From Escherichia coli (GTDB lineage Bacteria; Pseudomonadota; Gammaproteobacteria; Enterobacterales; Enterobacteriaceae): a stretch of 64,000 bases of DNA. The stretch lies in NCBI RefSeq assembly GCF_003790525.1, contig NZ_CP033635.1, one strand, 5' to 3'. Under the pieces are notes generated by a model. It saw only the letters and a program-made list of their open reading frames with translations, ran no database searches and was not told the origin of the DNA. Made by a program: the position numbers and the translations under genes. Of the stretch, positions 23,349-39,116 are shown one piece after another. The first letter of the stretch is position 1, and each line of letters starts with the position of its first letter.

Positions 23349-25291
23349 CGCCTTTGCTCGAATTAAAGGATATTCGTCGCAGCTATCCTGCCGGTGATGA
23401 GCAGGTTGAGGTGCTGAAGGGCATCAGCCTCGATATTTATGCCGGTGAGATGGTAGCGATTGTTGGCGCTTCGGGTTCCGGCAAATCGACCCTGATGAAT
23501 ATTCTCGGCTGCCTGGATAAGGCCACCAGCGGCACCTATCGCGTCGCCGGTCAGGATGTTGCCACGCTGGACGCCGATGCGCTGGCGCAACTGCGCCGCG
23601 AGCATTTCGGCTTTATTTTCCAGCGTTACCATTTGCTTTCGCATTTAACCGCCGAGCAGAACGTTGAAGTTCCCGCCGTCTATGCTGGTCTTGAGCGGAA
23701 ACAGCGGCTGCTTCGCGCCCAGGAGTTGCTGCAACGACTGGGGCTGGAAGACCGTACAGAGTATTATCCGGCACAGCTTTCGGGTGGTCAGCAACAGCGT
23801 GTCAGCATCGCGCGGGCATTGATGAACGGCGGTCAGGTAATTCTTGCCGATGAACCAACCGGTGCACTGGACAGCCATTCTGGCGAAGAGGTGATGGCGA
23901 TCCTGCATCAGCTGCGCGATCGCGGGCATACGGTGATTATCGTCACCCACGATCCGCAGGTTGCTGCTCAGGCCGAGCGGGTGATCGAAATTCGTGACGG
24001 CGAAATTGTGCACAATCCTCCCGCCGTTGAAAAAGTGAATGCTACTGGCGGGACGGAACCTGTTGTCAACACGGCGTCTGGCTGGCGGCAGTTTGTCAGC
24101 GGTTTTAACGAGGCGCTGACGATGGCATGGCGGGCGCTGGCAGCGAATAAAATGCGTACTTTACTGACCATGCTGGGGATTATTATCGGTATTGCGTCGG
24201 TGGTTTCCATTGTCGTGGTGGGCGACGCCGCCAAACAAATGGTGCTGGCGGATATTCGTTCTATTGGTACGAATACTATTGATGTCTATCCCGGGAAAGA
24301 TTATGGCGATGACGATCCGCAATATCAGCAGGCGCTGAAGTACGACGACTTAATCGCCATCCAAAAACAACCGTGGGTCGCCTCAGCCACACCTGCCGTC
24401 TCGCAAAACCTGCGCCTGCGTTATAACAATGTTGATGTGGCTGCCAGTGCCAATGGCGTGAGCGGCGATTATTTTAATGTCTATGGCATGACCTTCAGTG
24501 AAGGGAACACCTTTAATCAGGAGCAGCTGAACGGTCGTGCGCAGGTGGTGGTTCTCGACAGTAATACTCGCCGCCAGCTTTTCCCCCATAAAGCAGATGT
24601 GGTTGGCGAGGTGATTCTGGTCGGCAATATGCCCGCCAGAGTCATTGGTGTGGCGGAAGAAAAACAGTCGATGTTTGGTAGCAGTAAAGTGCTGCGTGTC
24701 TGGCTACCTTACAGCACGATGTCCGGGCGAGTTATGGGCCAGTCGTGGCTGAACTCCATTACTGTCAGGGTGAAAGAAGGATTTGACAGCGCCGAGGCGG
24801 AACAGCAACTCACGCGTTTACTTTCACTGCGCCACGGTAAGAAGGATTTCTTTACCTGGAACATGGATGGTGTCTTGAAAACCGTTGAAAAGACCACACG
24901 TACTTTACAACTGTTTCTGACGCTGGTGGCGGTGATTTCGCTGGTGGTGGGCGGTATTGGTGTAATGAATATTATGCTGGTGTCAGTGACCGAGCGGACG
25001 CGGGAAATTGGCATTCGCATGGCTGTAGGTGCGCGAGCAAGCGATGTTTTGCAACAGTTCCTGATCGAAGCCGTACTGGTTTGCCTGGTCGGTGGCGCGT
25101 TGGGAATAACACTGTCACTGTTAATTGCTTTCACCTTGCAGCTTTTCTTACCCGGCTGGGAGATTGGTTTTTCACCGTTGGCACTGCTGCTGGCGTTTCT
25201 CTGCTCGACGGTCACCGGGATTTTATTTGGCTGGTTACCCGCACGAAATGCGGCACGACTGGATCCAGTAGATGCTCTGGCACGAGAGTAA
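23345..25291 (+). CDS. macB: Macrolide export ABC transporter ATPase/permease
   Basis: 648 aa; N-terminal ABC ATPase ([17 protein letters not shown]) plus C-terminal FtsX-like permease. Confidence 0.9.
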
Positions 25292-25302
25292 TTTTTGAGA
25301 TA

Positions 25303-25331
25303 AAAATGCCAGCCGATCGGGCTGGCATTTT
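25303..25331. terminator. Bidirectional terminator between macB and cspD
   Basis: AAAAATGCCAGCCGATCGGGCTGGCATTTTG: hairpin with A-run and T-run on either side. Confidence 0.6.
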
Positions 25332-25363
25332 GCCTTTAGGATGTACACAATGAGACAGAAGAG

Positions 25364-25588
25364 CTATGCGACTGCCGCTTCTACTTCGACGGGCACAATA
25401 ACACTGGCGTGATTGCCTTTTGGCCCCTGGTGGACATCAAACTGAACGGATTGTCCAGCTTTTAGCGTTCTGTAACCATCCATCTGAATGGTGGAATAAT
25501 GAGCGAAAATATCTTCGCCGCCGCCTTCAGGGCAGATGAAACCAAACCCTTTGGCATTGTTGAACCACTTAACAGTACCCTTTTCCAT
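25364..25588 (-). CDS. cspD: Stationary-phase cold-shock-domain protein
   Basis: MEKGTVKWFNNAKGFGFI... CSD; start at MEKGTV rather than the upstream ATG. Confidence 0.9.
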   Translation of the reverse strand: MEKGTVKWFNNAKGFGFICPEGGGEDIFAHYSTIQMDGYRTLKAGQSVQFDVHQGPKGNHASVIVPVEVEAAVA

Positions 25589-25945
25589 GCTTCGACATCC
25601 TTCGCAAATCTTATACAAGTAAGATGGAATAAACCGGGGTCAGAGAGGGGGCTGTTCAAAACCTCGCCAACTCTAGAAATACAATTTAGAGAATTAGGGC
25701 GAGCCGTCAAGCATTTGACAGGGGACAGGGGGCAGGTATGAATCAAAAATTTGAAGCAGTTAACGCTATTGACAGGAATGTGACAGATGTCGCTGATGCC
25801 AACGATAGATGATAGTTATTTATCATCTAGTGTTCGCGGGTGTTCGTGGTAGTGTTTTGTGTGCATTCATCGCTATGATTATAAAGGAAAATTTTGTTTT
25901 ACTTGTTCGCTCTTGTTCGTCACGGTTTGCCCTTGTACGATGCAC

Positions 25946-25969
25946 GGTGTAGTCAATGGTGTAGTTAAT
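25946..25969. repeat. Island attL direct repeat
   Basis: GGTGTAGTCAATGGTGTAGTTAAT; an additional GTTCGCGG(G/T)TGTTCG block at 25832-25846 is also repeated at the right end (36264-36278). Confidence 0.65.
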
Positions 25970-25992
25970 TTTGATGACCGGAAACGCGAAAC

Positions 25993-27231
25993 ATGAGCAG
26001 CGCAATTCATAGACTTAGCGACACTCTTTTACGAAAATTAAGCGGATCACCAACCACAAAAAACGCCTTTTTTAATGACGGTGGCAATCTTAGCGTAAGA
26101 CATTCCACCAGCGGCCTGTTAACCTGGTATTTCACTTACAGGGCCGGAACTGGCAGGCAGGTATCACCGGAACGCCTGAGACTGGGCAACTATCCCGATC
26201 TGAGCCTGAAAGCAGCCAGGGAAAAAGCGGCACAGTGTCGCGCCTGGCTGGCGGAGGGGAAAAATCCACGCCATGAGCTTAATCACACAGTGCAGGAAGC
26301 GTTAGCCCCCGTGACGGTTAAGGACGCGCTCACTTACTGGCTTGAGTCGTATGCGAAGGAAAAGCGCACTGACCACGAATCACTGAAAAGCCGTATCAAT
26401 AAGCACATAATCAGCCAGATTGGTGCTATGCCGCTGGATAAATGCGAGCTACGCCACTGGCTGGCCTGTTTTGACCAGCTTGCTAAGCGTAATCCGGTAT
26501 CAGCCGGCTTTTTGTTGCAGGTATGCAAACAGGCGCTTAAGTACTGCCGTAAACGTCGCTACGCCGTCAGTAACGTTCTTGATGATATGGTCGTAGGTGA
26601 TGTGGGAAAAAAAGCAGAAATAAGCGAGCGAGTGCTAACAAACAAGGAGCTTGGCGAGCTACTCCGCGCACTGGATGAAAAAATTTTCCCGCCGTACTAC
26701 AGCGCTTTAATTCGCCTTCTGATTGTCTTCGGATGCCGTACCACTGAGCTAAGACGCTCCGAGGTTCGGGAATGGGATTTTAAAGAAATGCTCTGGACTG
26801 TGCCGAAAGAACACAGCAAAACGAAGGTAGCAATATTCAGGCCAATACCGGAAGCGATCTTGCCGTTCGTCATGAAGCTGGTGGAGCAGAACAGGCACAC
26901 GGGCTTATTGCTTGGAGAACTGAAAGGGCAATCATCCGTAGCAGAGTACGGAAGAACGGCACACAGACGCATTAATCAAGCCCCCTGGTCGTTGCACGAC
27001 ATCCGGCACACATTTACAACCATGCTGAACGATTTAGGCGTGGATCCGCATATTGTCGAACAGCTTACTGCCCACCAGATGCCAGGAATGCAACGCGTCT
27101 ATAACCACTCCCGTTATCTCGATGCAAAGCGTGACGCTCTTAATCTATGGGTAGACCGTCTCGAGCTTCTCCAGAACAATGATGAAAAAATCGTTGTTAT
27201 GACCCCGCGAATTTACCCCCAAAATTCTTGA
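25993..27231 (+). CDS. int: Tyrosine integrase (P4-type)
   Basis: 412 aa; C-terminal catalytic region (...HDIRHTFTTML...YNHSRYLD) adjacent to the att repeat. Confidence 0.85.
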   Translation: MSSAIHRLSDTLLRKLSGSPTTKNAFFNDGGNLSVRHSTSGLLTWYFTYRAGTGRQVSPERLRLGNYPDLSLKAAREKAAQCRAWLAEGKNPRHELNHTVQEALAPVTVKDALTYWLESYAKEKRTDHESLKSRINKHIISQIGAMPLDKCELRHWLACFDQLAKRNPVSAGFLLQVCKQALKYCRKRRYAVSNVLDDMVVGDVGKKAEISERVLTNKELGELLRALDEKIFPPYYSALIRLLIVFGCRTTELRRSEVREWDFKEMLWTVPKEHSKTKVAIFRPIPEAILPFVMKLVEQNRHTGLLLGELKGQSSVAEYGRTAHRRINQAPWSLHDIRHTFTTMLNDLGVDPHIVEQLTAHQMPGMQRVYNHSRYLDAKRDALNLWVDRLELLQNNDEKIVVMTPRIYPQNS

Positions 27232-27650
27232 CAAATTACGGCTGTTTTTTCTTTAAGAGATTACAGCCGTGAATAGATCTTAGAATATCGGGGAATATCT
27301 GCAAATATCTTCTCTTTATATGTGTCAACTATCGAAAAAAATTGAAATGTCTTCTTCTGAGTTCTTATTCTCTGTTTCTTGATTGTTCCAACATCTGATG
27401 GTTTATCTATTTGTTTTTAATGAGGTAATTCAGGTGACATGCCAAATGACGACATTTTTTGTTGCGTCGCTTAAAAACTCGTGACACGATTTTAAACACT
27501 AACGAGCTTCTACGAACCTTAGCGAACAAAGCCTTTAGCATGGTTGTGTTTTTAATTTAAGAGGTGAAAAAGAATCTAAGTAATATCCGATCTCATATAT
27601 CTACAGCTAAGAGAAAAGTTTATATACGTAATTTTTATGTAGGTTTTTGT

Positions 27651-27860
27651 ATGCGTGAAATAAATGAAGATCGCGTAATCCGTGAGGATGAATGTCGTAA
27701 GTTAACTGGAGTGTGTCGCACTACACGCTACGAACTGGAGAAAAAAGGGAGCTTTCCGTCTCGCCGTAATCTTGGTGGGCGTTCTGTAGGTTGGCTGCTG
27801 TCCGAGGTTATGGAATGGGTTAAAAGCCGGGATCGCATTAATTCAGGCAAGGCAGCGTAA
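27651..27860 (+). CDS. alpA: AlpA-family phage transcriptional regulator (excisionase-like HTH)
   Basis: ~69 aa from MREINEDRV...; layout resembles AlpA/Vis-family proteins; position right after int. Confidence 0.65.
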   Translation: MREINEDRVIREDECRKLTGVCRTTRYELEKKGSFPSRRNLGGRSVGWLLSEVMEWVKSRDRINSGKAA

Positions 27861-27998
27861 AGGGGAGTATATGACACATAAAACAAAGGCGACCGGGGGC
27901 GGTCGCCAATGGGAAAACACTAAACATAAGCCCGAACATCATAGCGATTTGCTGGCTGGTGGGCAATGTGTCCAGTGTGGTGGCTTGCTGGTGGATTG

Positions 27999-28199
27999 TC
28001 AGCCAGGTGGGCGGTTTTTGTTTGCTTTTAAGCGCCGAGGGTATTTCTCGACAAAAGGATCAAGGGCGAACTTATCAGGAACTTTAAGATTTTCAGTGCG
28101 GGTTAATGCCTTATTTATTTCCCTGCGGGTTTTCTCACGCTGGCGCATGATAATTGATAATGCTTTATTTTGTAGTTCCTGGTTATTCATAATTATCAC
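27999..28199 (-). CDS. Hypothetical small basic protein
   Basis: 66 aa ORF directly downstream of the RHH gene on the same strand; may be co-transcribed. Confidence 0.35.
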   Translation of the reverse strand: MIIMNNQELQNKALSIIMRQREKTRREINKALTRTENLKVPDKFALDPFVEKYPRRLKANKNRPPG

Positions 28200-28247
28200 C
28201 TTTAAAACAATGCGCCGCAGTACCTCACACCACGGCGCTGATAGTGA

Positions 28248-28427
28248 TTATTCTGATTCTTTGGCCTTGCGGCGCTGGCGGTATTCAACTTCTCGCTTTA
28301 ATGCTGCTGTTACAAACTGCCCTGTACTTTCACCAGGCATTTTTACCGCCTCAACATTGTTCATAACTTCATGCGGAACCCTTGCCGCAACTGTTTGTGA
28401 TTTTGCGTTTACTGCTTTTGTCGCCAT
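28248..28427 (-). CDS. Ribbon-helix-helix (CopG/Arc-like) DNA-binding protein, 59 aa
   Basis: Hand-translated (below the 60-aa track cutoff): MATKAVNAKSQTVAARVPHEVMNNVEAVKMPGESTGQFVTAALKREVEYRQRRKAKESE; palindromic operators lie just upstream. Confidence 0.5.
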   Translation of the reverse strand: MATKAVNAKSQTVAARVPHEVMNNVEAVKMPGESTGQFVTAALKREVEYRQRRKAKESE

Positions 28428-28477
28428 GTTGTGTACCCCTTACAAAAAACAAATGCAGTATGCAGGAAAAAAAATAA

Positions 28478-28530
28478 GTGTTCAACACTTGGCGTGTTTA
28501 ACACCTAGGCTTAAATTGGTGTTCAACACC
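28478..28530. promoter_or_regulatory. Three palindromic operator-like sites
   Basis: GTGTTCAACAC (28478-28488), GTGTTTAACAC (28495-28505), GGTGTTCAACACC (28518-28530) upstream of the RHH gene. Confidence 0.45.
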
Positions 28531-29571
28531 TTGTTGATGAAAGGTGCAGAAACGACGAAACCCCGCACTGTTGGAGCAGTAACGGGGCTTCTAACCACCA
28601 ACGATAGAAAGCGTATCGAGGTAGCTATGTTAAATCATACCACACACCCGCAAGGGCGGGACCCGCACAACCTGAATAAATACATCTGGCGTTTTATCGC
28701 CCTGAGCACAGCACAACCACGCGTTATTACCATCGGGGCCACCAGCGAACAGGAAGCCCGCCAGCAATCCCCGACTGGCTGGGTGATGGTATTGGCCTCC
28801 AGATTTCATCATCGCTGTTTGTTTTTTGTCTGTCTCTCCTCGGGGTATGGGGTTGTGCCGTTCCAGCGTATGCGGGGCCGTTCACTGATGAAGCGCTCAA
28901 GCGGGAAATTATCGGATGGCGCGGGGGGCCGTACCCGTCGTTCCCGCCTCCGCTGGCGTACCACGCTGGCTTCGGTAATTTCCCCTGATTCGTTTATTTT
29001 CATAAAGAGTTACCTCCGTGCTCATCTGCTCTGGCGTTTTCTGTTTCTGATGAAGACTTACAGCGGTAGCGGCGTATCTTATCTTAAGATTTGGTTTAAT
29101 TTCTCGTGTCTGGCTTTAATGACGGCGCGTAATAATATCTGTCGCTGCTTTGTGTTTACGTCCAGAACTGTGGGGGATAATATGGATTTGTTCATGGTGC
29201 TCACCTGTAATGCATTGCGTCGTGATGCCTCATATCACGGCGGCGGTTATCGTTTTGTTCGGATTCGTCCCCTGATGAAATCCTCAAGCGGAAAATGTTC
29301 AGGGCGAGGTAATTCAGGAGGGACAGGGTTATTACTCATGCGCTCACGTTCCCTTGCGGCGCGTGCAGCATTCAGCTTTTGCAGGAGCACATCAAACGGC
29401 ACCCCCTTATCATTCATGGTCCCCCCTGTATATCCGTTGTTAACTGATGGTTACAGGTGCATTTTTCGCACAAACTATTTAATCAACACATCCGACCACA
29501 TTATCAGAGAGCCGGAATATACAGGGGCAATAATCCCGCATTTGCTGGCCTACGCACAGCTTACCGCTGAT

Positions 29572-29859
29572 ATGGCACTGAATGAGGCCAAAGCCATCCT
29601 GATTGCTGATTGTGAATATGGGGTTATGCGTGATGATCGTTTTAATGCCCTGAAACAGGAATTTGATGGCACACCGGAAGATACAGATATTGCGCTGTTA
29701 TGTGTTGCTGACATGGTAAAAGCTGCATGTTTTTTACTGGAAACCGCCGAACATTCAGGAACGGGTAGCGATATTCTCAATATTGCGTCGGACTATGCTG
29801 AATATGTGGCAGAGGCGCGTTACAGAAGAAAATTCCAGGAGGTGGTTAGCCATGAATAA
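29572..29859 (+). CDS. Hypothetical protein (start uncertain; TTG at 29542 is an alternative)
   Basis: Only protein-like portion of the long stop-free frame; ends with an AGGAGG RBS for the next gene. Confidence 0.4.
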   Translation: MALNEAKAILIADCEYGVMRDDRFNALKQEFDGTPEDTDIALLCVADMVKAACFLLETAEHSGTGSDILNIASDYAEYVAEARYRRKFQEVVSHE

Positions 29860-30025
29860 TCATGAAGCGCACTTACCTGTAGTGCTTAATGTGCCATCTG
29901 ATTATACGGGGCGCGTTTTGATATTTCTGGATAAAGGGAAAGTGAAATCGCAATGCCGCCTTAGAAATAATGAGGTTATTGGTTCTCTGGCTTTTTTTCT
30001 GAAGCCTGTATTCGCGCCGGAATAA
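29851..30025 (+). CDS. Hypothetical small protein (57 aa)
   Basis: ATG overlaps the upstream stop (CATGAATAATC) with an AGGAGG SD 8 nt upstream. Confidence 0.4.
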
Positions 30026-30055
30026 AGCCGGAATCACTGACAGGAAAATAAAACC

Positions 30056-30355
30056 ATGAAAAAGAAAAATTCTGGCTTTACTGCCAGCGGCCTCGCTCGG
30101 CCTGAAATCCGTCCCGGCTATATTTTCCGTGATAACTACGGCGGTACGGTAACGATTAAAGGCGTGGCAGAACGGCGCATCACCTACCGCCATGAAGGTT
30201 ACGAATATGATTGCGTGATGCCTGTTTATCAGTTTGTGCGTGATTTTTCTCTTGTGCAGGCCGTACCGCGTAACGTGCCCACCAGCAGGGAGAAAGCACG
30301 CGCCAATATTCAGAAGATGAAAACCATGATTAACGGATTCAGGGGTAAAAAATGA
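30056..30355 (+). CDS. Hypothetical protein
   Basis: 99 aa ORF; 4-bp overlap with the primase start. Confidence 0.5.
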   Translation: MKKKNSGFTASGLARPEIRPGYIFRDNYGGTVTIKGVAERRITYRHEGYEYDCVMPVYQFVRDFSLVQAVPRNVPTSREKARANIQKMKTMINGFRGKK

Positions 30356-32100
30356 AACTGGCACCGAACGTAAAACTGCAGTCACGCGGCATAAAACACA
30401 AAGGAACTGAAGTCATTATTTTTGCGGGTAGTGATGCCTGGGCACACGCGAAACAATGGCAGGAACATGACGCGCGTATGGCCGGAGATAATGAGCCTCC
30501 TGTGTGGCTTGGGGAGCAGCAGTTATCCGAACTGGATAAGCTGCAAATTGTGCCGGAAGGCAGAAAATCCGTGCGTATATTCAGGGCCGGATATCTTGCG
30601 CCAGTAATGATAAAGGCGATTGGTCAGAAGCTGGCGGCGGCTGGCGTACAGGACGCAAATTTTTACCCCGAAGGAATGCACGGTCAGAAGTGTGAAAACT
30701 GGCGGCGTTATCTGAATGCTGAGCGTGAAAATATTGCTGCAGGGCTTACCATGCCGGAGCAGAAAAATACGCAACTGGCACAAATGGCAGACAGTGAGCG
30801 CGCACAGATGCTTGCTGGTCGATTTGATGGCGTTTGTGTGCATCCGGAAAGTGAAATCGTTCACGTATGGCGCGGCGGGGTATGGTGTCCGGTCAGCACA
30901 ATGGAACTGAGCCGCGAAATGGTGGCGATCTATTCAGAGCACAGGGCCACTTTCAGCAAGCGCGTAATCAGTAACGCCGTGGAAGCGTTAAAAGTTATTG
31001 CCGAACCAATGGGCGAGCCGTCCGGCGATTTGCTGCCGTTCGCCAATGGTGCGCTTGACCTGAAAACGGGGGAATTTTCCCCGCACACGCCGGAGAACTG
31101 GATCACCACGCACAACGGCATTGAGTACACGCCACCAGCACCTGGGGAGAACATCCGCGATAACGCGCCAAACTTTCATAAATGGCTTGAGCACGCAGCC
31201 GGAAAAGACCCGCGCAAGATGATGCGTATATGTGCCGCGCTGTACATGATTATGGCGAACCGGTACGACTGGCAGATGTTTATTGAGGCCACCGGAGACG
31301 GCGGGAGCGGTAAAAGTACATTCACACACATAGCCAGCCTTCTGGCAGGGAAACAGAACACGGTAAGTGCTGAGATGACATCGCTTGATGATGCTGGTGG
31401 GCGTGCGCAGGTTGTCGGGAGTCGTCTTATCGTCCTGGCAGACCAGCCGAAATATACAGGCGAAGGAACGGGCATCAAGAAAATCACGGGCGGTGACCCC
31501 GTGGAAATTAACCCGAAATACGAAAAGCGTTTCACGGCTGTAATCAGGGCGGTGGTGCTGGCGACCAACAATAACCCGATGATATTCACCGAACGGGCCG
31601 GAGGTGTGGCACGTCGTCGCGTGATTTTTCGTTTCGACAATATCGTCAGTGAGGCTGAAAAAGACAGGGAGCTACCGGAAAGGATTGCGGCTGAAATCCC
31701 CGTCATTATCCGCCGATTACTGGCGAACTTTGCAGACCCTGAAAAGGCGCGGGCTTTACTACTGGAACAGCGTGACGGTGATGAAGCACTGGCGATAAAG
31801 CAGCAAACGGATCCGGTTATTGAGTTTTGCCAGTTCCTGAATTTTCTGGAGGAAGCACGTGGCCTGATGATGGGTGGCGGTGGCGATTCCGTGAAGTACA
31901 CGACCAGAAACAGCCTGTACCGCGTCTATCTGGCGTTTATGGCATACGCAGGCAGGAGCAAACCGCTGAACGTGGCTGAGTTCAGCAAGGCCATGAAGCC
32001 AGCGGCGAAAGTTTACGGACATGAATATATAACGCGCAGGATTAAAGGGGTTACGCAAACCAACGTGACAACAACAGACGACTGCGACGCGTTTTTATAG
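30352..32100 (+). CDS. P4-family phage/plasmid primase-helicase-like replication protein
   Basis: 582 aa; C-terminal NTPase with Walker A GDGGSGKST and LADQP Walker B-like motif typical of the P4 alpha / D5 family. Confidence 0.8.
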   Translation: MKLAPNVKLQSRGIKHKGTEVIIFAGSDAWAHAKQWQEHDARMAGDNEPPVWLGEQQLSELDKLQIVPEGRKSVRIFRAGYLAPVMIKAIGQKLAAAGVQDANFYPEGMHGQKCENWRRYLNAERENIAAGLTMPEQKNTQLAQMADSERAQMLAGRFDGVCVHPESEIVHVWRGGVWCPVSTMELSREMVAIYSEHRATFSKRVISNAVEALKVIAEPMGEPSGDLLPFANGALDLKTGEFSPHTPENWITTHNGIEYTPPAPGENIRDNAPNFHKWLEHAAGKDPRKMMRICAALYMIMANRYDWQMFIEATGDGGSGKSTFTHIASLLAGKQNTVSAEMTSLDDAGGRAQVVGSRLIVLADQPKYTGEGTGIKKITGGDPVEINPKYEKRFTAVIRAVVLATNNNPMIFTERAGGVARRRVIFRFDNIVSEAEKDRELPERIAAEIPVIIRRLLANFADPEKARALLLEQRDGDEALAIKQQTDPVIEFCQFLNFLEEARGLMMGGGGDSVKYTTRNSLYRVYLAFMAYAGRSKPLNVAEFSKAMKPAAKVYGHEYITRRIKGVTQTNVTTTDDCDAFL

Positions 32101-32109
32101 TTTTAGACA

Positions 32110-32345
32110 AAAGCCCTCTACCCCTTCTACCTTAAGAAAATAATTACATATATTTCATGTTGATAGATTGGGTAGATGGCAGGTAGAAGGTACTTAAAAG
32201 CCCTCTACACCCTCTACCATAATTCAGGGCATTTGTGAGGGGGTGGTAGATGGCAGGTAGAGGGCCAAAAAAGCCCTCTACCCCGCTGAAATCCGCGCCA
32301 TTACTGACCTGAAAGATGATTGTGTAGAGAGGTAGAGGAGGTGCA
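32110..32345. repeat. Iteron cluster (putative island replication origin)
   Basis: About 12 copies of CCCTCTACC / GGTAGAGGG in both orientations (e.g. 32112-32131, 32171-32190, 32199-32218, 32241-32264, 32272-32285, 32328-32342) immediately downstream of the primase gene. Confidence 0.65.
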
Positions 32346-32386
32346 CCACAACACAAAACTTTTTAAACACGAGGGTAAAAATAAAA

Positions 32387-32644
32387 ATGCACACATCAGA
32401 AAAATTTAACAATCAGAAGAAATCACATAACCGCGCCATTGACCTTACAGAGCACTGGCTGAGGGTGGCGATAAAAATCATCGACCGCAACGCGGGAGAA
32501 GGATACGCGAAAGCGCATCCCGAACTGATTAGCGCATTCATGACCACAGCGGCGGCAAACTTTGCCACGCTGACACAACGGGAGATTGCCGAAGCGGAAC
32601 AGGTAACAACCATCAACGTTAAAACCAGTGAGGTGGAATCATGA
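32387..32644 (+). CDS. Hypothetical protein
   Basis: 85 aa ORF; stop overlaps the next start. Confidence 0.45.
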   Translation: MHTSEKFNNQKKSHNRAIDLTEHWLRVAIKIIDRNAGEGYAKAHPELISAFMTTAAANFATLTQREIAEAEQVTTINVKTSEVES

Positions 32645-33051
32645 CAGCACAGATAGCGGCTTACGGGCGGCTGGTGGCTGACCCGCAGTTAAAGACCACC
32701 AGCAAGGGGACACAAATGGCGATGGCGAGTATGGCGGTCCCCCTTCCGTGCAGCCAGGCAGATGACGGAACGGCGACGATGTGGTTATCTGTGCTGGCGT
32801 TTGGCAGACAGGCCGAAGCACTGGCAAAGCACCGCAAGGGTGAACTCCTGAGCGTGGCGGGTAACATGCAGGTCAGCCAGTGGACCGGACAGAACGGGGA
32901 AACGCGGCAGGGCTGGCAGGTTATCGCAGACAGCGTAATCAGTGCGCGGACAGTGCGACCGGGCGGAAAAACACGCAAAACCACAGGCGCACAGGGGAAT
33001 AAGCCACCAGCGGGAGGCGATGGCCCCTACGGAGATGATATACCCTTCTGA
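32641..33051 (+). CDS. Single-stranded-DNA-binding (OB-fold, SSB-like) protein
   Basis: 136 aa; layout resembles the SSB N-terminal OB fold (GRLVADPQL...W..VLAFGRQAE...QW..QNGE.R); C-terminal G/P-rich tail. Confidence 0.55.
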   Translation: MTAQIAAYGRLVADPQLKTTSKGTQMAMASMAVPLPCSQADDGTATMWLSVLAFGRQAEALAKHRKGELLSVAGNMQVSQWTGQNGETRQGWQVIADSVISARTVRPGGKTRKTTGAQGNKPPAGGDGPYGDDIPF

Positions 33052-33068
33052 ATCAGGCGGGGAGCAAC

Positions 33069-33389
33069 ATGAACAACAGCACACCGAAGAACCGGACAAT
33101 AAGCGACGCGACAGCAGAAGAACTCGAGAGCAGGGGACTGTGGCGACGGGCTGCCAGAAGGTGGCAGGATGTGATGATTACTCTTCAGGAAGACAGGCAC
33201 AGAGAACTTGCGGCAATGAGAGCAAGGGAATGTATCAGGAAGGCAAAGCGCCCGATACCTGAAAACCGTTATGATGTTCACGCAGTCAGAAGGGCCGCAG
33301 ACAGGACAATACAACAGATGGGGCTACCGTCGCTTACTGATGAAATATGGCGTGATTACCCTGATAACGTAAATGATGACGGTTATTAA
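33069..33389 (+). CDS. Hypothetical protein
   Basis: 106 aa charged ORF. Confidence 0.45.
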   Translation: MNNSTPKNRTISDATAEELESRGLWRRAARRWQDVMITLQEDRHRELAAMRARECIRKAKRPIPENRYDVHAVRRAADRTIQQMGLPSLTDEIWRDYPDNVNDDGY

Positions 33390-33468
33390 CAGGCGGGGAA
33401 ACACGACACCAGCGGGAGCGACACGGGGTAGCAGATGCCGCTGGTGGAACAGCACAAAGGGGGAGAAC

Positions 33469-34053
33469 ATGACAAAGCTGACCATTAACCGAAAACCAAA
33501 AGGCATATACGGCACACCGCAGAAAAAGACGCAGGAGGCTGAACAGCCGGATAAAACCACACCAGCGCAAAAGCAGAGCCGCGAGCAGAAAACACAACAG
33601 AAGACGGCAGCAAAACGCAAATCAGAAAAGAGCCGGAAAAAAAATATCAGACGCGTTGAACGCCTTGCCGCGCTCTGGCCTGAACTTTTCAGCCAGGAAT
33701 CGCCCAGACCGCTTAAGGTTGGCATATTTGATGACCTGATGGAGGATATTACTGCGAGAGGTATTTCATTAGGTCAGGGAGCGCTTCGCGCAACGCTGGC
33801 GTATTATGTCAGTTCAGTGCGATATTACCGTTCCCTGATGGCTGGTGGCGTGCGTTACGACCTGAAAGGCCATCCGTGCGGGGAGGTGACACAGGAGCAC
33901 CAGTTGAACGCGGGGAAGCGACTGGATGAGATGAAGAAAAAACAGCAGGAGCGCAGAAACATGAAGGCAGAAAATAAGCATAACGGTAAGCCACCAGCAG
34001 GGCATAATATTATTCTGAAAAATGCCAGTTCCTCGGGCGTACGGAAAGCATAA
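33469..34053 (+). CDS. ProQ/FinO-domain RNA-binding protein
   Basis: Lys-rich N-terminus followed by LAALWPELFSQESPRPLKVGIFDDLMEDI...LRATLAYYVSSVRYYRSLMAGGVRYDLKGHPCGEV, close to the ProQ N-terminal FinO domain; start at ATG 33469 with GGGGGAG RBS. Confidence 0.65.
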   Translation: MTKLTINRKPKGIYGTPQKKTQEAEQPDKTTPAQKQSREQKTQQKTAAKRKSEKSRKKNIRRVERLAALWPELFSQESPRPLKVGIFDDLMEDITARGISLGQGALRATLAYYVSSVRYYRSLMAGGVRYDLKGHPCGEVTQEHQLNAGKRLDEMKKKQQERRNMKAENKHNGKPPAGHNIILKNASSSGVRKA

Positions 34054-34075
34054 AACCCTGACCACATGAAGAGAC

Positions 34076-34105
34076 GAAGCCGGAGTAGTCCGGCTTTATT
34101 TTTTA
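34076..34105 (+). terminator. Rho-independent terminator
   Basis: AAGCCGGAGTAGTCCGGCTTT followed by ATTTTTTAT. Confidence 0.55.
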
Positions 34106-34130
34106 TGGGTCCTTTCCGGCATGTGGACCC

Positions 34131-34300
34131 GTTACGGGGCGGCGACCTCGCGCAAAACAACTCCTTATGAAATTTTTACGGGAAATTCAGATCCGTTCTT
34201 CTTTTTTGTAAGTCATTGTGTATATTGAATTTTATTTGTTCTGAGAAAGGATCTGATAAGGCTTCGTTTCGCCTGAAAAGGCAGTTTTAAGATCCTTTCT
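34131..34300 (+). other. Lambda-type cos site (cosN plus cosB-like region)
   Basis: GTTACGGGGCGGCGACCTCGCG matches the lambda cohesive-end region (12-nt GGGCGGCGACCT at 34137-34148); downstream TTATGAAATTTTTACGGG and CCGTTCTTCTTTTTT resemble lambda cosB elements. Confidence 0.65.
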
Positions 34301-34340
34301 TAAAAAAACGGGTCATTTTCTTGCTGGAGGGGATGCTGGT

Positions 34341-34925
34341 GTGAGGGTTAACAAGAAAAAGCTGGCTGAGATTTTTGATGTTGATGTGCGGACTATATCC
34401 ACCTGGCAAAATCAGGGGCTGCCGCTGATATCAGGCGGCGGGAAAGGGAATGAAGCGATTTTTGATACGGGAAAAGCGATTGAGTGGTTCGCTCAGCGTG
34501 AGGCCGACATTGAAAATGAAAAACTTCGTAAGGAAGTCGACGATATGCGCGTGGCTGCTGAGTCGGATCTGCAGCCCGGTACGATTGATTACGAACGCTA
34601 CCGTCTCACAAAAGCACAGGCAGATGCGCAGGAACTTAAAAACGAGCGCGATCGCGGTGACGTGATTGATACAGAGTTTTGCATGTACGCGCTTTCAAAA
34701 CTGGCGAGACAGATTTCATCAATCATGGACAGCCTCCCGCTTACTATGCAAAGGAGCTTCCCACAGATGACCCCCGCCATGCTGGATGGCCTGAAAAAAG
34801 AAGTTGTCAGAGCCTGTAACGCATGCACAAAACTTGATGAAAACATCCCGCGAATGCTGTCCGATTATCTGATGGAAACTACCGGAAATGTGCCTGATAA
34901 GTTTCAGCCGGATAAAGACAAGTAA
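34341..34925 (+). CDS. Nu1-like small terminase subunit homologue (candidate packaging-redirection factor)
   Basis: MRVNKKKLAEIFDVDVRTISTWQNQGLPLISGGGKGNEAIFD...ADIENEKLRKEV...LQPGTIDYERYRLTKAQADAQELKN closely parallels lambda Nu1; GTG start. Confidence 0.75.
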   Translation: MRVNKKKLAEIFDVDVRTISTWQNQGLPLISGGGKGNEAIFDTGKAIEWFAQREADIENEKLRKEVDDMRVAAESDLQPGTIDYERYRLTKAQADAQELKNERDRGDVIDTEFCMYALSKLARQISSIMDSLPLTMQRSFPQMTPAMLDGLKKEVVRACNACTKLDENIPRMLSDYLMETTGNVPDKFQPDKDK

Positions 34926-35086
34926 CGTAGTGCACAATGACCGAAGCCAGTTTACTGACTGGCTTTCAGCGTTGCGCTGGTGGGCGTTATGCGTCAGTGA
35001 TGAACAAAAAACAATCGAAATCGACACCGAAAAATAAAACATCAAGTCATATCAATATATTGCATTGGTGGTGATAACGAATAAAA

Positions 35087-35467
35087 ATGCAAAAACTAGC
35101 CTTTTTCCGCGATGCTCCCGCCCCGTGGCAGGGCACCCCACAAGGAGGACCCGCCATCACTATGGAGGACATGACCATGACCATGACCGAGACCGAAGCG
35201 ATCGGGATAATCCGCAGTATTACCGGAATCAGCCAGCAGGCTGGCGAACAGGAGGCCACGCAGCCGGACAGCGTGATAGCCGAAAATTACGCGTGTGTTG
35301 TTGCTGAGGTGATGCGCCGTGATGGTATTGAGCTTAACGGCGTGGATATGCGCAACATACGAACCAGAGTCCTTGAGTTGCTGGCATACCGTCGCCGTTC
35401 TCAACAACGGAGGGAGAGCGCGAAAAACACTTATCAGTGGAAGAAGCCGGAACGGTTGCGGCGGTAG
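35087..35467 (+). CDS. Hypothetical protein (true start may be the internal MEDMTM...)
   Basis: 126 aa ORF; last protein-like ORF before the right att. Confidence 0.4.
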   Translation: MQKLAFFRDAPAPWQGTPQGGPAITMEDMTMTMTETEAIGIIRSITGISQQAGEQEATQPDSVIAENYACVVAEVMRRDGIELNGVDMRNIRTRVLELLAYRRRSQQRRESAKNTYQWKKPERLRR

Positions 35468-36293
35468 ATTCCTGATATTCAGGAAAACCACGAATCCGGG
35501 GGTTTTACTGGCGCGGTGTACACGGTGGAACGCATAGCGTTACCTGACTTATTGCATTGTAAAAAGTTAGAAAGGCACGGCCTGTAAGATGGGATGTTGT
35601 GAGTAGTTTAAAGCTACCCGCAAATTCTTTCGTTGTGCTGGCACAGGCGGTTAAACCGTCGGTAACTGGATAATCCCCACTGGGGGAAAAGCTGGCTACA
35701 TCCCTCACATCTGAGGACTGATAATGCGACATTGCGCTGGCTGGTGGGTGAGTTGCAGATTTGCAACTCGACCATGAAACTACGGAAACTACCCGTAGTT
35801 TGGGTAGTAAGAGTAACACCCAGATTTTGGGGCTTACTCGCGATACCCAAATAAAGGGTATCGGTGGAAGAAATATCGTTTCTCATATGTAAGTACCGAG
35901 GGCGGAATTCCGCCTTCGGTTACTTATTGTGCTCATTCACAGGGAGGGGCGGGTCAAATCTCTGTACCCTGACGTCTTCAGGACTGCCCGCCCCATCGAT
36001 TTTTTATACCCGCGAAAAATGAAAAACGCTTCACGCTGGTGGGCCTGATGCCGATATGGGGAGCCGCATACCGGAGAATATCCACCAGCACGGCAACAGC
36101 AGAATAGCCCCGACACAGAAAAACCACGAATATGGGGTTTTTGTTATGGCATGGTCATGATGACCGCCCCTGCTCTGAATGGTGGAAATCACCACGCAGA
36201 TCATCCACCAGCTTCATGACGGATAGCCGGAAAATGATAATGATTAAAGCGTGTTGATCTTTGTTCGCGGTTGTTCGATATTGTTCGTGAAGC

Positions 36294-36317
36294 GGTGTAG
36301 TTAATGGTGTAGTTAAT
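36294..36317. repeat. Island attR direct repeat
   Basis: GGTGTAGTTAATGGTGTAGTTAAT, 23/24 identical to attL. Confidence 0.65.
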
Positions 36318-36488
36318 ATCACTGTTTTTGACGGGCTTGTTATTTGCAACATAATGAAAAATAAAGACTAATTAACTAAATGATATAAGATAGTTATCTA
36401 TCATGTGGAGTAGATTGGTCAGGCAAATAAGCTCTTGTCAGCGGCAGGGCGTTCTGCCGATAACCGTAACCGAAGATGATAACTGACA

Positions 36489-36809
36489 ATGGGTAAAACG
36501 AACGACTGGCTGGACTTTGATCAACTGGCGGAAGAAAAAGTTCGCGACGCGCTAAAACCGCCATCTATGTATAAAGTGATATTAGTCAATGATGATTACA
36601 CTCCGATGGAGTTTGTTATTGACGTGTTACAAAAATTCTTTTCTTATGATGTAGAACGTGCAACGCAATTGATGCTCGCTGTTCACTACCAGGGGAAGGC
36701 CATTTGCGGAGTCTTTACCGCCGAGGTTGCAGAAACCAAAGTGGCGATGGTGAACAAGTACGCGAGGGAGAATGAGCATCCATTGCTGTGTACGCTAGAA
36801 AAAGCCTGA
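36489..36809 (+). CDS. clpS: ClpA adaptor protein ClpS
   Basis: 106 aa; [21 protein letters not shown] motif. Confidence 0.95.
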
Positions 36810-36839
36810 ATGCAGGCATAAAAATTGGGGGAGGTGCCT

Positions 36840-39116
36840 ATGCTCAATCAAGAACTGGAACTCAGTTTAAATATGGCTTTCGCCAGAGCGCGCGAGCACC
36901 GTCATGAGTTTATGACCGTCGAGCACTTGTTACTGGCGCTGCTCAGTAACCCATCTGCCCGGGAGGCGCTGGAAGCGTGTTCTGTGGATTTGGTTGCGCT
37001 CCGTCAGGAACTGGAAGCCTTTATTGAACAAACCACACCCGTTCTGCCTGCCAGTGAAGAGGAGCGCGACACACAGCCGACGCTGAGTTTTCAGCGTGTA
37101 CTGCAACGTGCGGTCTTCCATGTCCAGTCCTCCGGTCGCAATGAGGTTACCGGTGCAAACGTTCTGGTCGCTATTTTTAGCGAACAGGAGTCGCAGGCGG
37201 CATATCTGTTGCGTAAACATGAAGTCAGCCGTCTCGATGTGGTGAACTTTATCTCTCATGGCACGCGTAAAGACGAGCCGACACAGTCTTCTGATCCTGG
37301 CAGCCAGCCAAACAGCGAAGAACAAGCTGGTGGGGAGGAACGTATGGAGAATTTCACGACGAACCTGAATCAGCTTGCGCGAGTGGGCGGAATCGACCCA
37401 CTGATTGGTCGTGAGAAGGAGCTGGAGCGTGCTATTCAGGTTCTCTGCCGTCGCCGTAAAAACAACCCGCTGCTGGTGGGGGAATCTGGTGTCGGTAAAA
37501 CCGCGATTGCGGAAGGTCTTGCCTGGCGAATTGTTCAGGGCGATGTGCCGGAAGTGATGGCTGACTGTACGATTTACTCTCTCGATATCGGTTCTCTGTT
37601 AGCGGGCACTAAATATCGCGGCGACTTTGAAAAACGTTTTAAAGCGTTGCTCAAGCAGCTGGAGCAGGACACTAACAGCATCCTGTTTATTGATGAGATC
37701 CACACCATTATCGGTGCGGGTGCAGCGTCTGGTGGTCAGGTCGATGCGGCTAACCTGATCAAACCGTTGCTCTCCAGCGGTAAAATTCGCGTAATTGGTT
37801 CGACAACCTATCAGGAGTTCAGCAACATTTTCGAGAAAGACCGTGCTCTGGCGCGTCGCTTCCAGAAAATTGATATTACTGAACCGTCGATCGAAGAAAC
37901 TGTTCAAATCATCAATGGCCTGAAACCGAAGTACGAAGCGCACCATGACGTGCGTTATACCGCAAAAGCGGTGCGTGCAGCGGTAGAGCTGGCGGTGAAA
38001 TACATTAACGATCGTCATCTGCCGGATAAAGCCATTGACGTTATCGACGAAGCGGGCGCTCGCGCACGCCTGATGCCGGTAAGCAAACGCAAGAAAACCG
38101 TTAATGTGGCGGATATTGAGTCTGTGGTGGCCCGTATTGCGCGCATTCCAGAGAAGAGTGTTTCGCAGAGTGACCGCGATACCCTGAAAAACCTCGGCGA
38201 TCGCCTGAAAATGCTGGTCTTCGGTCAGGATAAAGCCATTGAGGCGCTGACTGAAGCCATTAAGATGGCGCGTGCAGGTTTAGGTCACGAACATAAACCG
38301 GTCGGTTCGTTCCTGTTTGCCGGTCCTACCGGGGTCGGGAAAACAGAGGTGACGGTACAGCTTTCGAAAGCTTTGGGCATTGAGCTTCTGCGCTTTGATA
38401 TGTCCGAGTATATGGAACGCCATACCGTCAGCCGTCTGATTGGTGCGCCTCCGGGATACGTTGGTTTTGATCAGGGGGGGCTGCTGACCGATGCGGTCAT
38501 CAAGCATCCGCACGCGGTACTGCTGCTGGACGAAATCGAGAAAGCGCATCCGGACGTGTTCAATATTCTGTTGCAGGTGATGGACAACGGTACGCTGACC
38601 GATAACAACGGACGCAAAGCGGACTTCCGTAACGTGGTATTGGTGATGACCACCAACGCTGGGGTACGAGAAACTGAGCGTAAATCGATTGGTCTTATCC
38701 ATCAGGACAACAGCACCGATGCGATGGAAGAGATCAAGAAGATCTTTACGCCGGAGTTTCGTAACCGTCTCGACAACATTATCTGGTTCGATCATCTCTC
38801 CACCGACGTGATCCATCAGGTAGTGGATAAATTCATCGTCGAGTTGCAGGTTCAGCTGGATCAGAAAGGTGTTTCTCTGGAAGTGAGCCAGGAAGCGCGT
38901 AACTGGCTGGCCGAGAAAGGTTACGACCGGGCAATGGGCGCACGTCCGATGGCGCGTGTCATCCAGGACAACCTGAAAAAACCGCTCGCCAACGAACTGT
39001 TGTTTGGTTCGCTGGTGGACGGCGGTCAGGTGACGGTTGCGCTGGATAAAGAGAAAAATGAGCTGACTTACGGATTCCAGAGTGCACAAAAGCACAAGGC
39101 GGAAGCAGCGCATTAA
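36840..39116 (+). CDS. clpA: ATP-dependent Clp protease ATP-binding subunit ClpA
   Basis: Two AAA+ modules ([16 protein letters not shown]); start at MLNQELE. Confidence 0.95.

Follow-up and report, generated by a model that had tools for sequence, protein, structure and literature searches.

Does a phage satellite that carries a lambda-type cos site and a complete small terminase gene, but no large terminase gene, use its own small terminase to select its DNA for packaging, or does it rely on the terminase of a helper phage altogether? This question is raised by a locus in the stretch of Escherichia coli DNA analysed here (64,000 nucleotides of contig NZ_CP033635.1; in the following, the window). 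The locus comprises a cos site and terS, the gene for a Nu1-type small terminase (TerS), and both lie in a 10.35-kb satellite of the phage-inducible chromosomal island (PICI) type that is inserted between cspD and clpS. The reading that we favour, with a probability of roughly 0.55, is that the island TerS would bind the island's own cosB and bring the large terminase (TerL) of a helper to cosN.

We compared the cos site of the island to that of lambda. The 22-mer GTTACGGGGCGGCGACCTCGCG occurs a single time in the window, without mismatch, and corresponds to the lambda cosN junction in 22/22 bases. The lambda ends were taken from NC_001416, where the right end reads ...CAGGTTACG, finishing ...GGGTCCTTTCCGGTGATCCGACAGGTTACG, and the left end reads GGGCGGCGACCTCGCG, starting GGGCGGCGACCTCGCGGG. 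Among 100 dinucleotide-preserving shuffles, no match was found even with up to 3 mismatches allowed. The predicted 12-nt cohesive end is GGGCGGCGACCT (34137–34148). An earlier note on this DNA had recognised the lambda cosN region, and the alignment to lambda shows a longer match than was claimed there, as cosQ with its flank (GGGTCCTTTCCGG, 34107–34119) is identical to lambda too. Furthermore, GGGTCCT begins 30 nt ahead of the top-strand nick, which is also the distance found in lambda. Differences from lambda are seen in the 11-nt cosQ–cosN spacer and in the sequence to the right of cosN.

In this right-hand sequence, the motif AGATCCKTTCT has exactly three matches in the 64-kb window, where 0.01 are expected, and all three are found at the position of cosB. 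They are arranged as in lambda, with R3 followed by an inverted R2 and by R1, and the boxes read AGATCC in the island vs GTTTCC in lambda. Both the cosB-like elements that the earlier note placed after cosN and their divergence from lambda beside a conserved cosN are thus confirmed. A search of the R3–R2 interval with the consensus of integration host factor (IHF) yielded no site with ≤1 mismatch. When read directly from the sequence, a weak candidate is seen whose reverse complement ACACAATGACTTA has 2 mismatches to WATCAANNNNTTR, and lambda I1 also has 2. Among related loci (L009, L010 and L015), the cohesive end is polymorphic at cosN position 6 (G/T, GGGCGGCGACCT vs GGGCGTCGACCT), and other satellites have the cohesive ends GGGCGGCAGCTG, GGGCGGCAGACG or GGGCGGCAGCGG; the cohesive-end sequence thus varies within the island family.

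The protein encoded by terS is a homologue of Nu1 over its whole length. It matches Pfam Phage_Nu1 (PF07471) over residues 1–161 (E 3.1e-75) and, in the PDB, lambda TerS 1–98 (6hn7_B, E 1.7e-40) as well as 1j9i and 7lxs, where the match to the 7lxs-like Gifsy-1-class structure has an E-value of 3.6e-23. In agreement with the earlier note, the open reading frame (ORF) is collinear with lambda Nu1, to which the protein is 54% identical; the identity is 58% to phage 21, 56% to phi80, 61% to Gifsy-1 and 70% to PhiR5_1. Its C-terminal domain is about 35–54% identical to phage proteins. The AlphaFold2 model has a mean predicted local distance difference test score (pLDDT) of 82 and consists of a strand-helix-helix-wing, long helices and a helical C-terminal domain, followed by a 13-aa tail that is probably flexible (pLDDT about 52). 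An overlapping or adjacent terL (gpA), as present in phages, was not found in the island, and no gpA-like sequence lies downstream.

The homologues of this TerS fall into two length classes, 181–182 aa vs 193–194 aa. The shorter proteins are phage TerS proteins with terL next to their genes. The longer proteins end in ...DYLMETTGNVP(D/E)K... and, wherever their context could be examined reliably, were encoded in PICI-like islands that lack terL. They form a single C-terminal lineage (69–99% identical over residues 101–181) that is joined to different N-terminal domains: one that is identical to lambda over the compared residues (satellite P0045), phage 21-like ones (P0002, P0009 and P0026) and the type of the window itself. 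The C-terminal module is under purifying selection (dN/dS of 0.11–0.25 at a proportion of synonymous differences, pS, of 0.27–0.69). It occurs in 791/5,426 complete E. coli genomes (about 14%), including O157:H7 strains and a Nissle-derived strain. In 40 rows taken evenly down the ranking, no terL was annotated beside the module and only terS was annotated under the match. Furthermore, the module is found at fixed synteny in PICIs that differ in integrase, replicase and insertion site.

A segment that is phage-derived and has no adjacent terL could also be what a deletion left of a decaying lambda-like prophage, that is, a functionless cos-nu1 fragment. However, the ORF is intact and its 3′ half belongs to the satellite-only lineage under purifying selection; in addition, the module keeps its synteny across differing PICIs and is not followed by gpA-like sequence. 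Selection, synteny and distribution strongly oppose a remnant, and we rejected this explanation as highly improbable.

When comparing terS to its relatives, we find that the gene is a mosaic. Compared to terS of the satellite P0002, there is one mismatch in the 3′ half (from about 34636), whereas the 5′ halves are saturated with differences. From cosN to 34635 (codon 98), the window has only 2 mismatches in about 505 nt (~99.6% identity) to a metagenomic lambda-like phage contig. The TerS of this phage (P0051) has 182 aa and a phage 21-type C-terminus, and it is followed by a TerL that is 87% identical to that of phage 21. The P0051-type lineage is a lambda-like prophage present in 15/5,426 complete genomes. 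A natural swap of the same segment is seen in LH50-c, whose island is identical to the window on both sides and has the sequence from cosN to 34627 replaced by a cosB and an N-terminal domain of the type found in the island of strain IHE3034. The junctions fall inside cosN on the left and inside 34627–34635 on the right, where the invariant AQADAQELKN motif is encoded. The near-identity to P0051 and the swap in LH50-c together define the exchanged unit as cosB plus TerS residues 1–98.

We thus conclude that the cosB/DNA-binding-domain unit acts as a cassette and is exchanged by recombination among phages and satellites. Judged by this comparison, the island either gained its cassette very recently from a lambda-like prophage lineage whose TerL is of the phage 21 type or has it in common with this lineage. 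This limits what can be said about packaging specificity, which the earlier note had considered to be altered: as cosB is ~99.6% identical to that of a lambda-like prophage lineage, the specificity differs from that of lambda, phi80 and phage 21 but not from that of every potential helper. We assign the cosB to the Gifsy-1 class, and it is not private to the satellite.

The two parts of the cassette co-vary. In a set of 12 elements with a Nu1-like DNA-binding domain, TerS residues 20, 21 and 24 sort perfectly with the core of the R box (12/12 elements). A recognition helix (residues 17–24) of the form RTI(S/T)(T/A/G)WQ(N/S) goes with an AGATCC core in the window, the P0051 phage, Gifsy-1 and P0008; RTI(E/D)RWQx goes with ATGTC(G/A) in phage 21, PhiR5_1, P0002, P0009 and P0026; and RTIQNWQ(E/D) goes with TTTCC in lambda, phi80 and P0045. 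For P0008, the box class was predicted from the helix beforehand and then confirmed in the sequence; its contig (L017) is from a low-coverage metagenome and possibly chimeric at cos, and it was used for the helix/R-box comparison only. The varying base pairs are lambda bp 54–56, where genetics puts the contact of residue 24 (PMC9026076). In satellites with the one C-terminal lineage, helix and box match in every case, and the two are transferred jointly in natural recombinants. Since the pairs are always matched and have moved together, the TerS of the satellite is very likely required for reading the satellite's own cosB.

The near-identity of the cassette to that of a phage can also be read differently. 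The complete TerS and TerL of a P0051-type helper might package the island, as cos-type Staphylococcus aureus pathogenicity islands (SaPIs) use a helper cos. The island TerS would then be dispensable or would mainly interfere, by titration of cosB or by mixed dimers formed via the N-terminal 98 residues that are identical to those of the helper TerS. Strain GF60 fits this explanation, as its genome holds both the island and a P0051-type prophage with the same cassette (L016, 2039192–2080850, at mlrA, with the full lambda-like gene order). The head and terminase genes of this prophage are intact; its tail genes are interrupted by insertions of IS3 and IS21 as well as by an internal stop, which speaks against it as a helper. 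Passive packaging is also consistent with the second cos of sibling satellites, which has helper-type R boxes and no matching satellite DNA-binding domain, and with the precedent of Rpp, which forms N-terminal heterodimers with phage TerS in the EcCICFT073-type family (PMC6739421). On the other hand, TUM9803 has the island and the cassette in one copy only, so that the P0051-type prophage is absent there. In TUM1886, whose locus is 100% identical to the window, this prophage was not found either; a second cassette match was recorded whose position was not located, and it is not the P0051-type prophage. Furthermore, a passive route leaves unexplained why purifying selection preserves a satellite-only C-terminal domain whatever the cassette type, and why cosB and the DNA-binding domain constantly travel together. 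We consider it a rather unlikely explanation.

A PICI for which packaging has been studied is EcCICFT073, the Rpp-type cos PICI of CFT073 (Fillol-Salom 2018, PMC6092414; 2019, PMC6739421). Experiments have shown that lambda and phi80, via its cos1, and also a resident prophage can package it (PMC6092414, PMC6739421), and dependence on the helper TerS was shown for that island. Its right end contains PerC, a 68-aa ORF, a gpE-like capsid gene, a gpD-like decoration gene, a 137-aa ORF, cos1, a 144-aa gene, an inverted cos2, a 93-aa ORF and phoQ. We take the 144-aa gene between cos1 and cos2 (c1503) to be rppA. The island of the window resembles EcCICFT073 in the hairpin before cosQ, in the order PerC ... 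cos1, packaging-specificity gene, inverted cos2, 93/94-aa ORF, and in the joining of a conserved cosN/cosQ to a cosB unlike that of lambda. The EcCICFT073 cos1 reads GGGTCCTTTCCGGCATATGGACCCGTTACGGGGCGGCGACCTCGCG, and only 1 base differs from the window over cosQ, spacer and cosN (CATATGG vs CATGTGG).

The two islands differ in what occupies the position of the 144-aa RppA. An Rpp protein is not encoded at the rpp position of the window, where the gene is that of a full-length 194-aa Nu1 homologue. The cosB of the window has canonical phage R3/R2/R1 boxes, whereas no phage cosB element was found in EcCICFT073 by its authors. In addition, the island analysed here has no gpE/gpD homologues, a degenerate cos2, another replicase and another insertion site (cspD/clpS vs icd/phoQ). 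From this comparison, we conclude that the island and EcCICFT073 are siblings, and that the position of Rpp is here taken by a complete small terminase.

The shared position suggests that the island TerS might work like Rpp, by forming hetero-oligomers with the helper TerS, which would then contact TerL as in the RppA-TerS complex of EcCICFT073. RppA is 30% identical to the window TerS over about 47–49 N-terminal residues, which belong to the DNA-binding domain (E 2e-7; 6hlk match), and the central helix of the island TerS (residues 61–100) is 75–100% identical to phage TerS proteins, both of which would agree with such an adaptor. However, this role would require neither a full-length TerS nor a conserved C-terminal domain with homology to the TerL-binding region of Nu1, and the IHE3034-type satellite TerS has a divergent central region (35% identity) in front of the same C-terminal domain. 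Hetero-oligomers of this kind therefore appear to be an improbable route.

Islands 'encoding TerS' were mentioned before for IHE3034 and 18098 (PMC6092414). The IHE3034 island has the same cspD/clpS site and a closely related integrase, and 65% of the query is covered at 91% identity. The C-terminal half of its terS product is 79% identical to that of the window and has the same type of extra tail. Differences are the divergent N-terminal domain, the GGTGGTGG-type cosB, the presence of gpE/gpD-like genes and a cos2 that is inverted and still intact. No PDB entry matched the IHE3034-type N-terminal domain, and the comparison of RppA to the IHE3034 TerS was not significant; thus, no sequence link to Rpp was found.

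How could the island then be packaged by its own TerS? Induction by a lambda-like helper would be followed by excision and replication of the island. A dimer of the island TerS would bind the island's R boxes, and its satellite-lineage C-terminal domain would recruit the helper TerL. TerL would nick cosN and package island concatemers into helper proheads, with packaging ending at a later cosQ/cosN. In this scheme, cosQ and cosN would be handled by the helper's large terminase, whereas specificity would reside in a unit of three R boxes, the possible IHF site and the winged-helix N-terminal domain of the island TerS. Crossovers that exchange the cassette fall in cosN and in the conserved stretch coding for AQADAQELKN. 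A lambda-sized head would probably be filled by 4 or 5 units of 10.35 kb (41 or 52 kb), which is based on the dependence of lambda packaging on chromosome length. The packaging module (34107–34925) is here described by its anatomy, homologies, mosaicism, co-variation and purifying selection; DNA binding, recruitment of TerL, dependence on a hijacked helper and packaging of multimers are what we infer from these.

Several observations weigh against packaging by the island's own TerS. First, an actual prophage has an identical cassette, and the TerS of that phage could package the island without the island TerS. Second, the IHE3034 and 18098 PICIs were not transferred after mitomycin C induction of resident prophages (PMC6092414). 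Third, a sigma-70 scan detected no promoter-like site between the terminator-like hairpin and terS. Lastly, the last 35 aligned residues of TerS are, by hand count, ~40% identical to PhiR5_1, ~38% to lambda and ~29% to phage 21. Because the identities of this region are only ~29–40%, no helper class is assignable, and similarity of the TerS C-terminus does not discriminate between PhiR5_1, lambda and phage 21.

Other features give leads to the helper. Among 50,697 records, a near-identical cosQ–cosN spacer was seen in no phage other than PhiR5_1, which is a lead and not a proof. The capsid gene of sibling satellites names no helper, as even the nearest phage capsids are only 47% identical to it. 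Beside EcCICFT073 lies a prophage whose cos and TerS are of the phage 21 type; together with the cos2 boxes of sibling islands (see below), this suggests that phages with a phage 21-like terminase are in the orbit of the island family.

More tentatively, the TerS of this PICI family might be a two-part adaptor, whose conserved satellite-only C-terminal domain and 13-aa tail capture the TerL of lambda-like helpers and in which Rpp is one extreme cassette. If so, a satellite would change which DNA is packaged without changing the motor that it steals, and a second, inverted cos of helper type would provide several alternative routes into lambda-like capsids.

Comparison to other satellites and phages places the proposed use of TerS among known systems. 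In pac-type SaPIs (SaPI1, SaPIbov1), a satellite small terminase and the helper large terminase redirect packaging to satellite DNA (PMC6092414, PMC6739421). These SaPIs package by the headful mechanism, their TerS proteins are of an unrelated family and interference is assigned to a protein of its own (Ppi), whereas the island has a cos-type system with a Nu1 fold and defined R boxes. In the cos-type SaPIbov5 and in P4, the satellite cos is cut by the helper terminase, and the identity of the cassette in window and prophage would allow the same passive route. However, SaPIbov5 and P4 encode no TerS, and the cos of P4 is P2-type whereas that of the window is lambda-type. The packaging-specificity classes of lambda-like phages are lambda/N15, phage 21, phi80 and Gifsy-1 (Murialdo and Feiss 2022, PMC9026076). 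By R boxes and recognition helix, the island belongs to the Gifsy-1 class, although the cosN of Gifsy-1 deviates at 3/12 positions and that of the window is lambda-type. The island differs from lambda-like phages in general by the missing adjacent terL and the 13-aa TerS tail. In lambda-21 hybrids, TerS can be functionally split at mid-gene, which is also the joint of the natural chimera in the window.

The cos-type PICIs of E. coli have so far been understood by one mechanism, in which Rpp reprogrammes the helper TerS. Sister islands seem to have a different solution at the same genomic position, their own complete small terminase. With the natural cassette swaps, an experiment on the reading of cosB by lambda-like terminases (helix residues 20, 21 and 24 vs box core) is already in place, and the swaps could also account for the helper range of islands with virulence or defence cargo. 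If the C-terminal domain binds the TerL of several helper classes, it would be a compact tool to redirect lambda-type packaging; if it does not, the ordinary reading applies, in which the locus is simply what one would expect a satellite of a known family to use for packaging. In the literature that could be searched, we found no description of either the modular cassette or the satellite-only C-terminal domain, and no mechanism study of a Nu1-type PICI TerS was found in a search that covered few subscription journals. Both features follow naturally from what is known of satellite strategies and of the mosaicism of lambda-like phages.

Downstream of terS, the window contains a relic of the inverted second cos, in which the R boxes are lost. 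Sibling islands have an intact inverted cos2 with R boxes unlike those of their own cos1: phage 21-type boxes in IHE3034, P0008 and EcCICFT073, and AGATCC-type boxes in P0009. On the P0008 contig (L017), a satellite-type terS and the inverted cos2 are found directly 3′ of phage lysis genes. This layout could have arisen by insertion of a satellite beside the late region of a prophage, by recombination between phage and satellite, or by a chimeric assembly joined at a common cos. The relic is followed by a conserved 94-aa ORF that is 69% identical to the 93-aa ORF after rppA/cos2 in CFT073. In the EcCICFT073-type island family, this ORF is always located 3′ of terS or the rpp gene. It has no match in the PDB (Rpp included) or in NCBIfam and one weak phage match, and it is essentially absent from phage genomes. 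We consider it a candidate for a partner or interference gene.

Lastly, we analysed the island as a whole (Table 1). It is bounded by 24-bp direct attachment (att) repeats, whose spacing gives a unit length of 10,348 bp. The flanking chromosome is ordinary, with macAB and cspD on one side and clpS, clpA, serW and infA on the other. Between the att repeats, there is no terL, capsid, portal, tail or lysis gene, as the earlier note had stated for the large terminase and capsid genes. A capsid-forming PICI (cf-PICI) was rejected, because its own capsid, portal, protease and TerL genes are all absent from the island. The published hallmarks of Gram-negative PICIs (PMC6092414) are found here: a terminal integrase, att repeats, a size of ~10–15 kb, AlpA, a primase followed by a probable origin, and no lysis, tail or full head set. 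We thus classify the element as a Gram-negative PICI of the EcCICFT073 family. With its cos site and Nu1 homologue, it fits the cos-packaging satellite type that the earlier note had proposed.

Table 1. Features of the island and its packaging module, in window coordinates
Feature	Position	Strand	Remarks
attL core (GGTGTAGTCAATGGTGTAGTTAAT)	25946..25969	.	Direct repeat with 36294–36317
Tyrosine integrase, 412 aa	25993..27231	+	phrog_1 integrase, E 1e-67; RefSeq annotation of the identical TUM1886 locus
AlpA-family regulator, 69 aa	27651..27860	+	Pfam Phage_AlpA, E 4.5e-16
Primase/replicase, 582 aa	30352..32100	+	phrog_864 DNA primase, E 1e-168
Iterons	32109..32295	.	Families D2 (3 x 27 nt) and D5 (2 x 20 nt), directly 3′ of the primase gene
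PerC-family regulator gene	33069–33389		RefSeq annotation
ProQ/FinO-domain protein	33469..34053	+	Last gene 5′ of cos; NCBIfam ProQ and FinO matches, both under the curated cut-off; RefSeq annotation
Intrinsic-terminator-like hairpin and T run	34076..34097	+	Directly 5′ of cosQ; similar hairpin before cosQ in sibling satellites
cosQ (GGGTCCT)	34107..34113	+	Identical to lambda 48473–48479
cosN	34131..34152	+	Exact match to the lambda junction
Exchangeable specificity cassette (cosB and terS codons 1–98)	34153..34635	+	Winged-helix DNA-binding domain and dimerisation helix
cosB R3 box (AGATCCGTTCT)	34189..34199	+	Same box as Gifsy-1; 1 bp nearer to cosN than lambda R3
Candidate IHF site (I1 position, between R3 and R2)	34209..34221	-	Weak, 2 mismatches, read directly from the sequence
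cosB R2 box (AGATCCTTTCT), inverted	34244..34254	-	AGATCCKTTCT match
cosB R1 box (AGATCCTTTCT)	34290..34300	+	AGATCCKTTCT match
terS, Nu1-type small terminase, 194 aa	34341..34925	+	GTG start; GGAGG 8 nt upstream
Satellite-lineage terS C-terminal module	34636..34925	+	With the 13-aa tail that phage TerS proteins lack; one mismatch to satellite P0002
Degenerate inverted second cos (cos2), GGGTCC ... ACG/GGGCGGGAGCAT/CGCG	35112..35152	-	Aligns with the intact cos2 of IHE3034, P0008, P0009 and EcCICFT073
Conserved 94-aa ORF	35183..35467	+	phrog_1561, E 1e-49
attR core	36294..36317	.	Direct repeat with attL

Icd-like, DUF4222 and SSB genes are also present inside the island. A very long ORF (27871–29859, + strand) includes 478 aa that are annotated as 'Icd-like' in RefSeq, and the match to the Icd-like model is limited to residues 86–127. 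Several small ORFs are located opposite to it on the - strand (YlcI/YnfO family and others) and have the common motif ...(E/D)(R/D)FI.(E/G)R.RI(R/T)... in their products. The region may thus contain several short genes or antisense elements instead of one protein. The two iteron families behind the primase gene are interleaved, with a 27-nt unit (AAAAGCCCTCTACC...) in three copies and a 20-nt unit (GGTAGATGGCAGGTAGARGG) in two, and are the probable replication origin of the island. The PerC and ProQ/FinO RNA-chaperone-like genes (33069–34053) are found at the position where sibling islands have the gpE-like capsid and gpD-like decoration genes.

No Rfam family matched the region 25000–37000 at gathering thresholds. 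A 27-nt direct repeat (CAGGAAAACCACGAATCCGGGGGTTTT; the copy is 85% identical) is present at 35480–35506 and 36116–36142. The stretch from the 94-aa ORF to attR, in which both copies lie, appears to be non-coding and also contains a strong hairpin (35895–35920).

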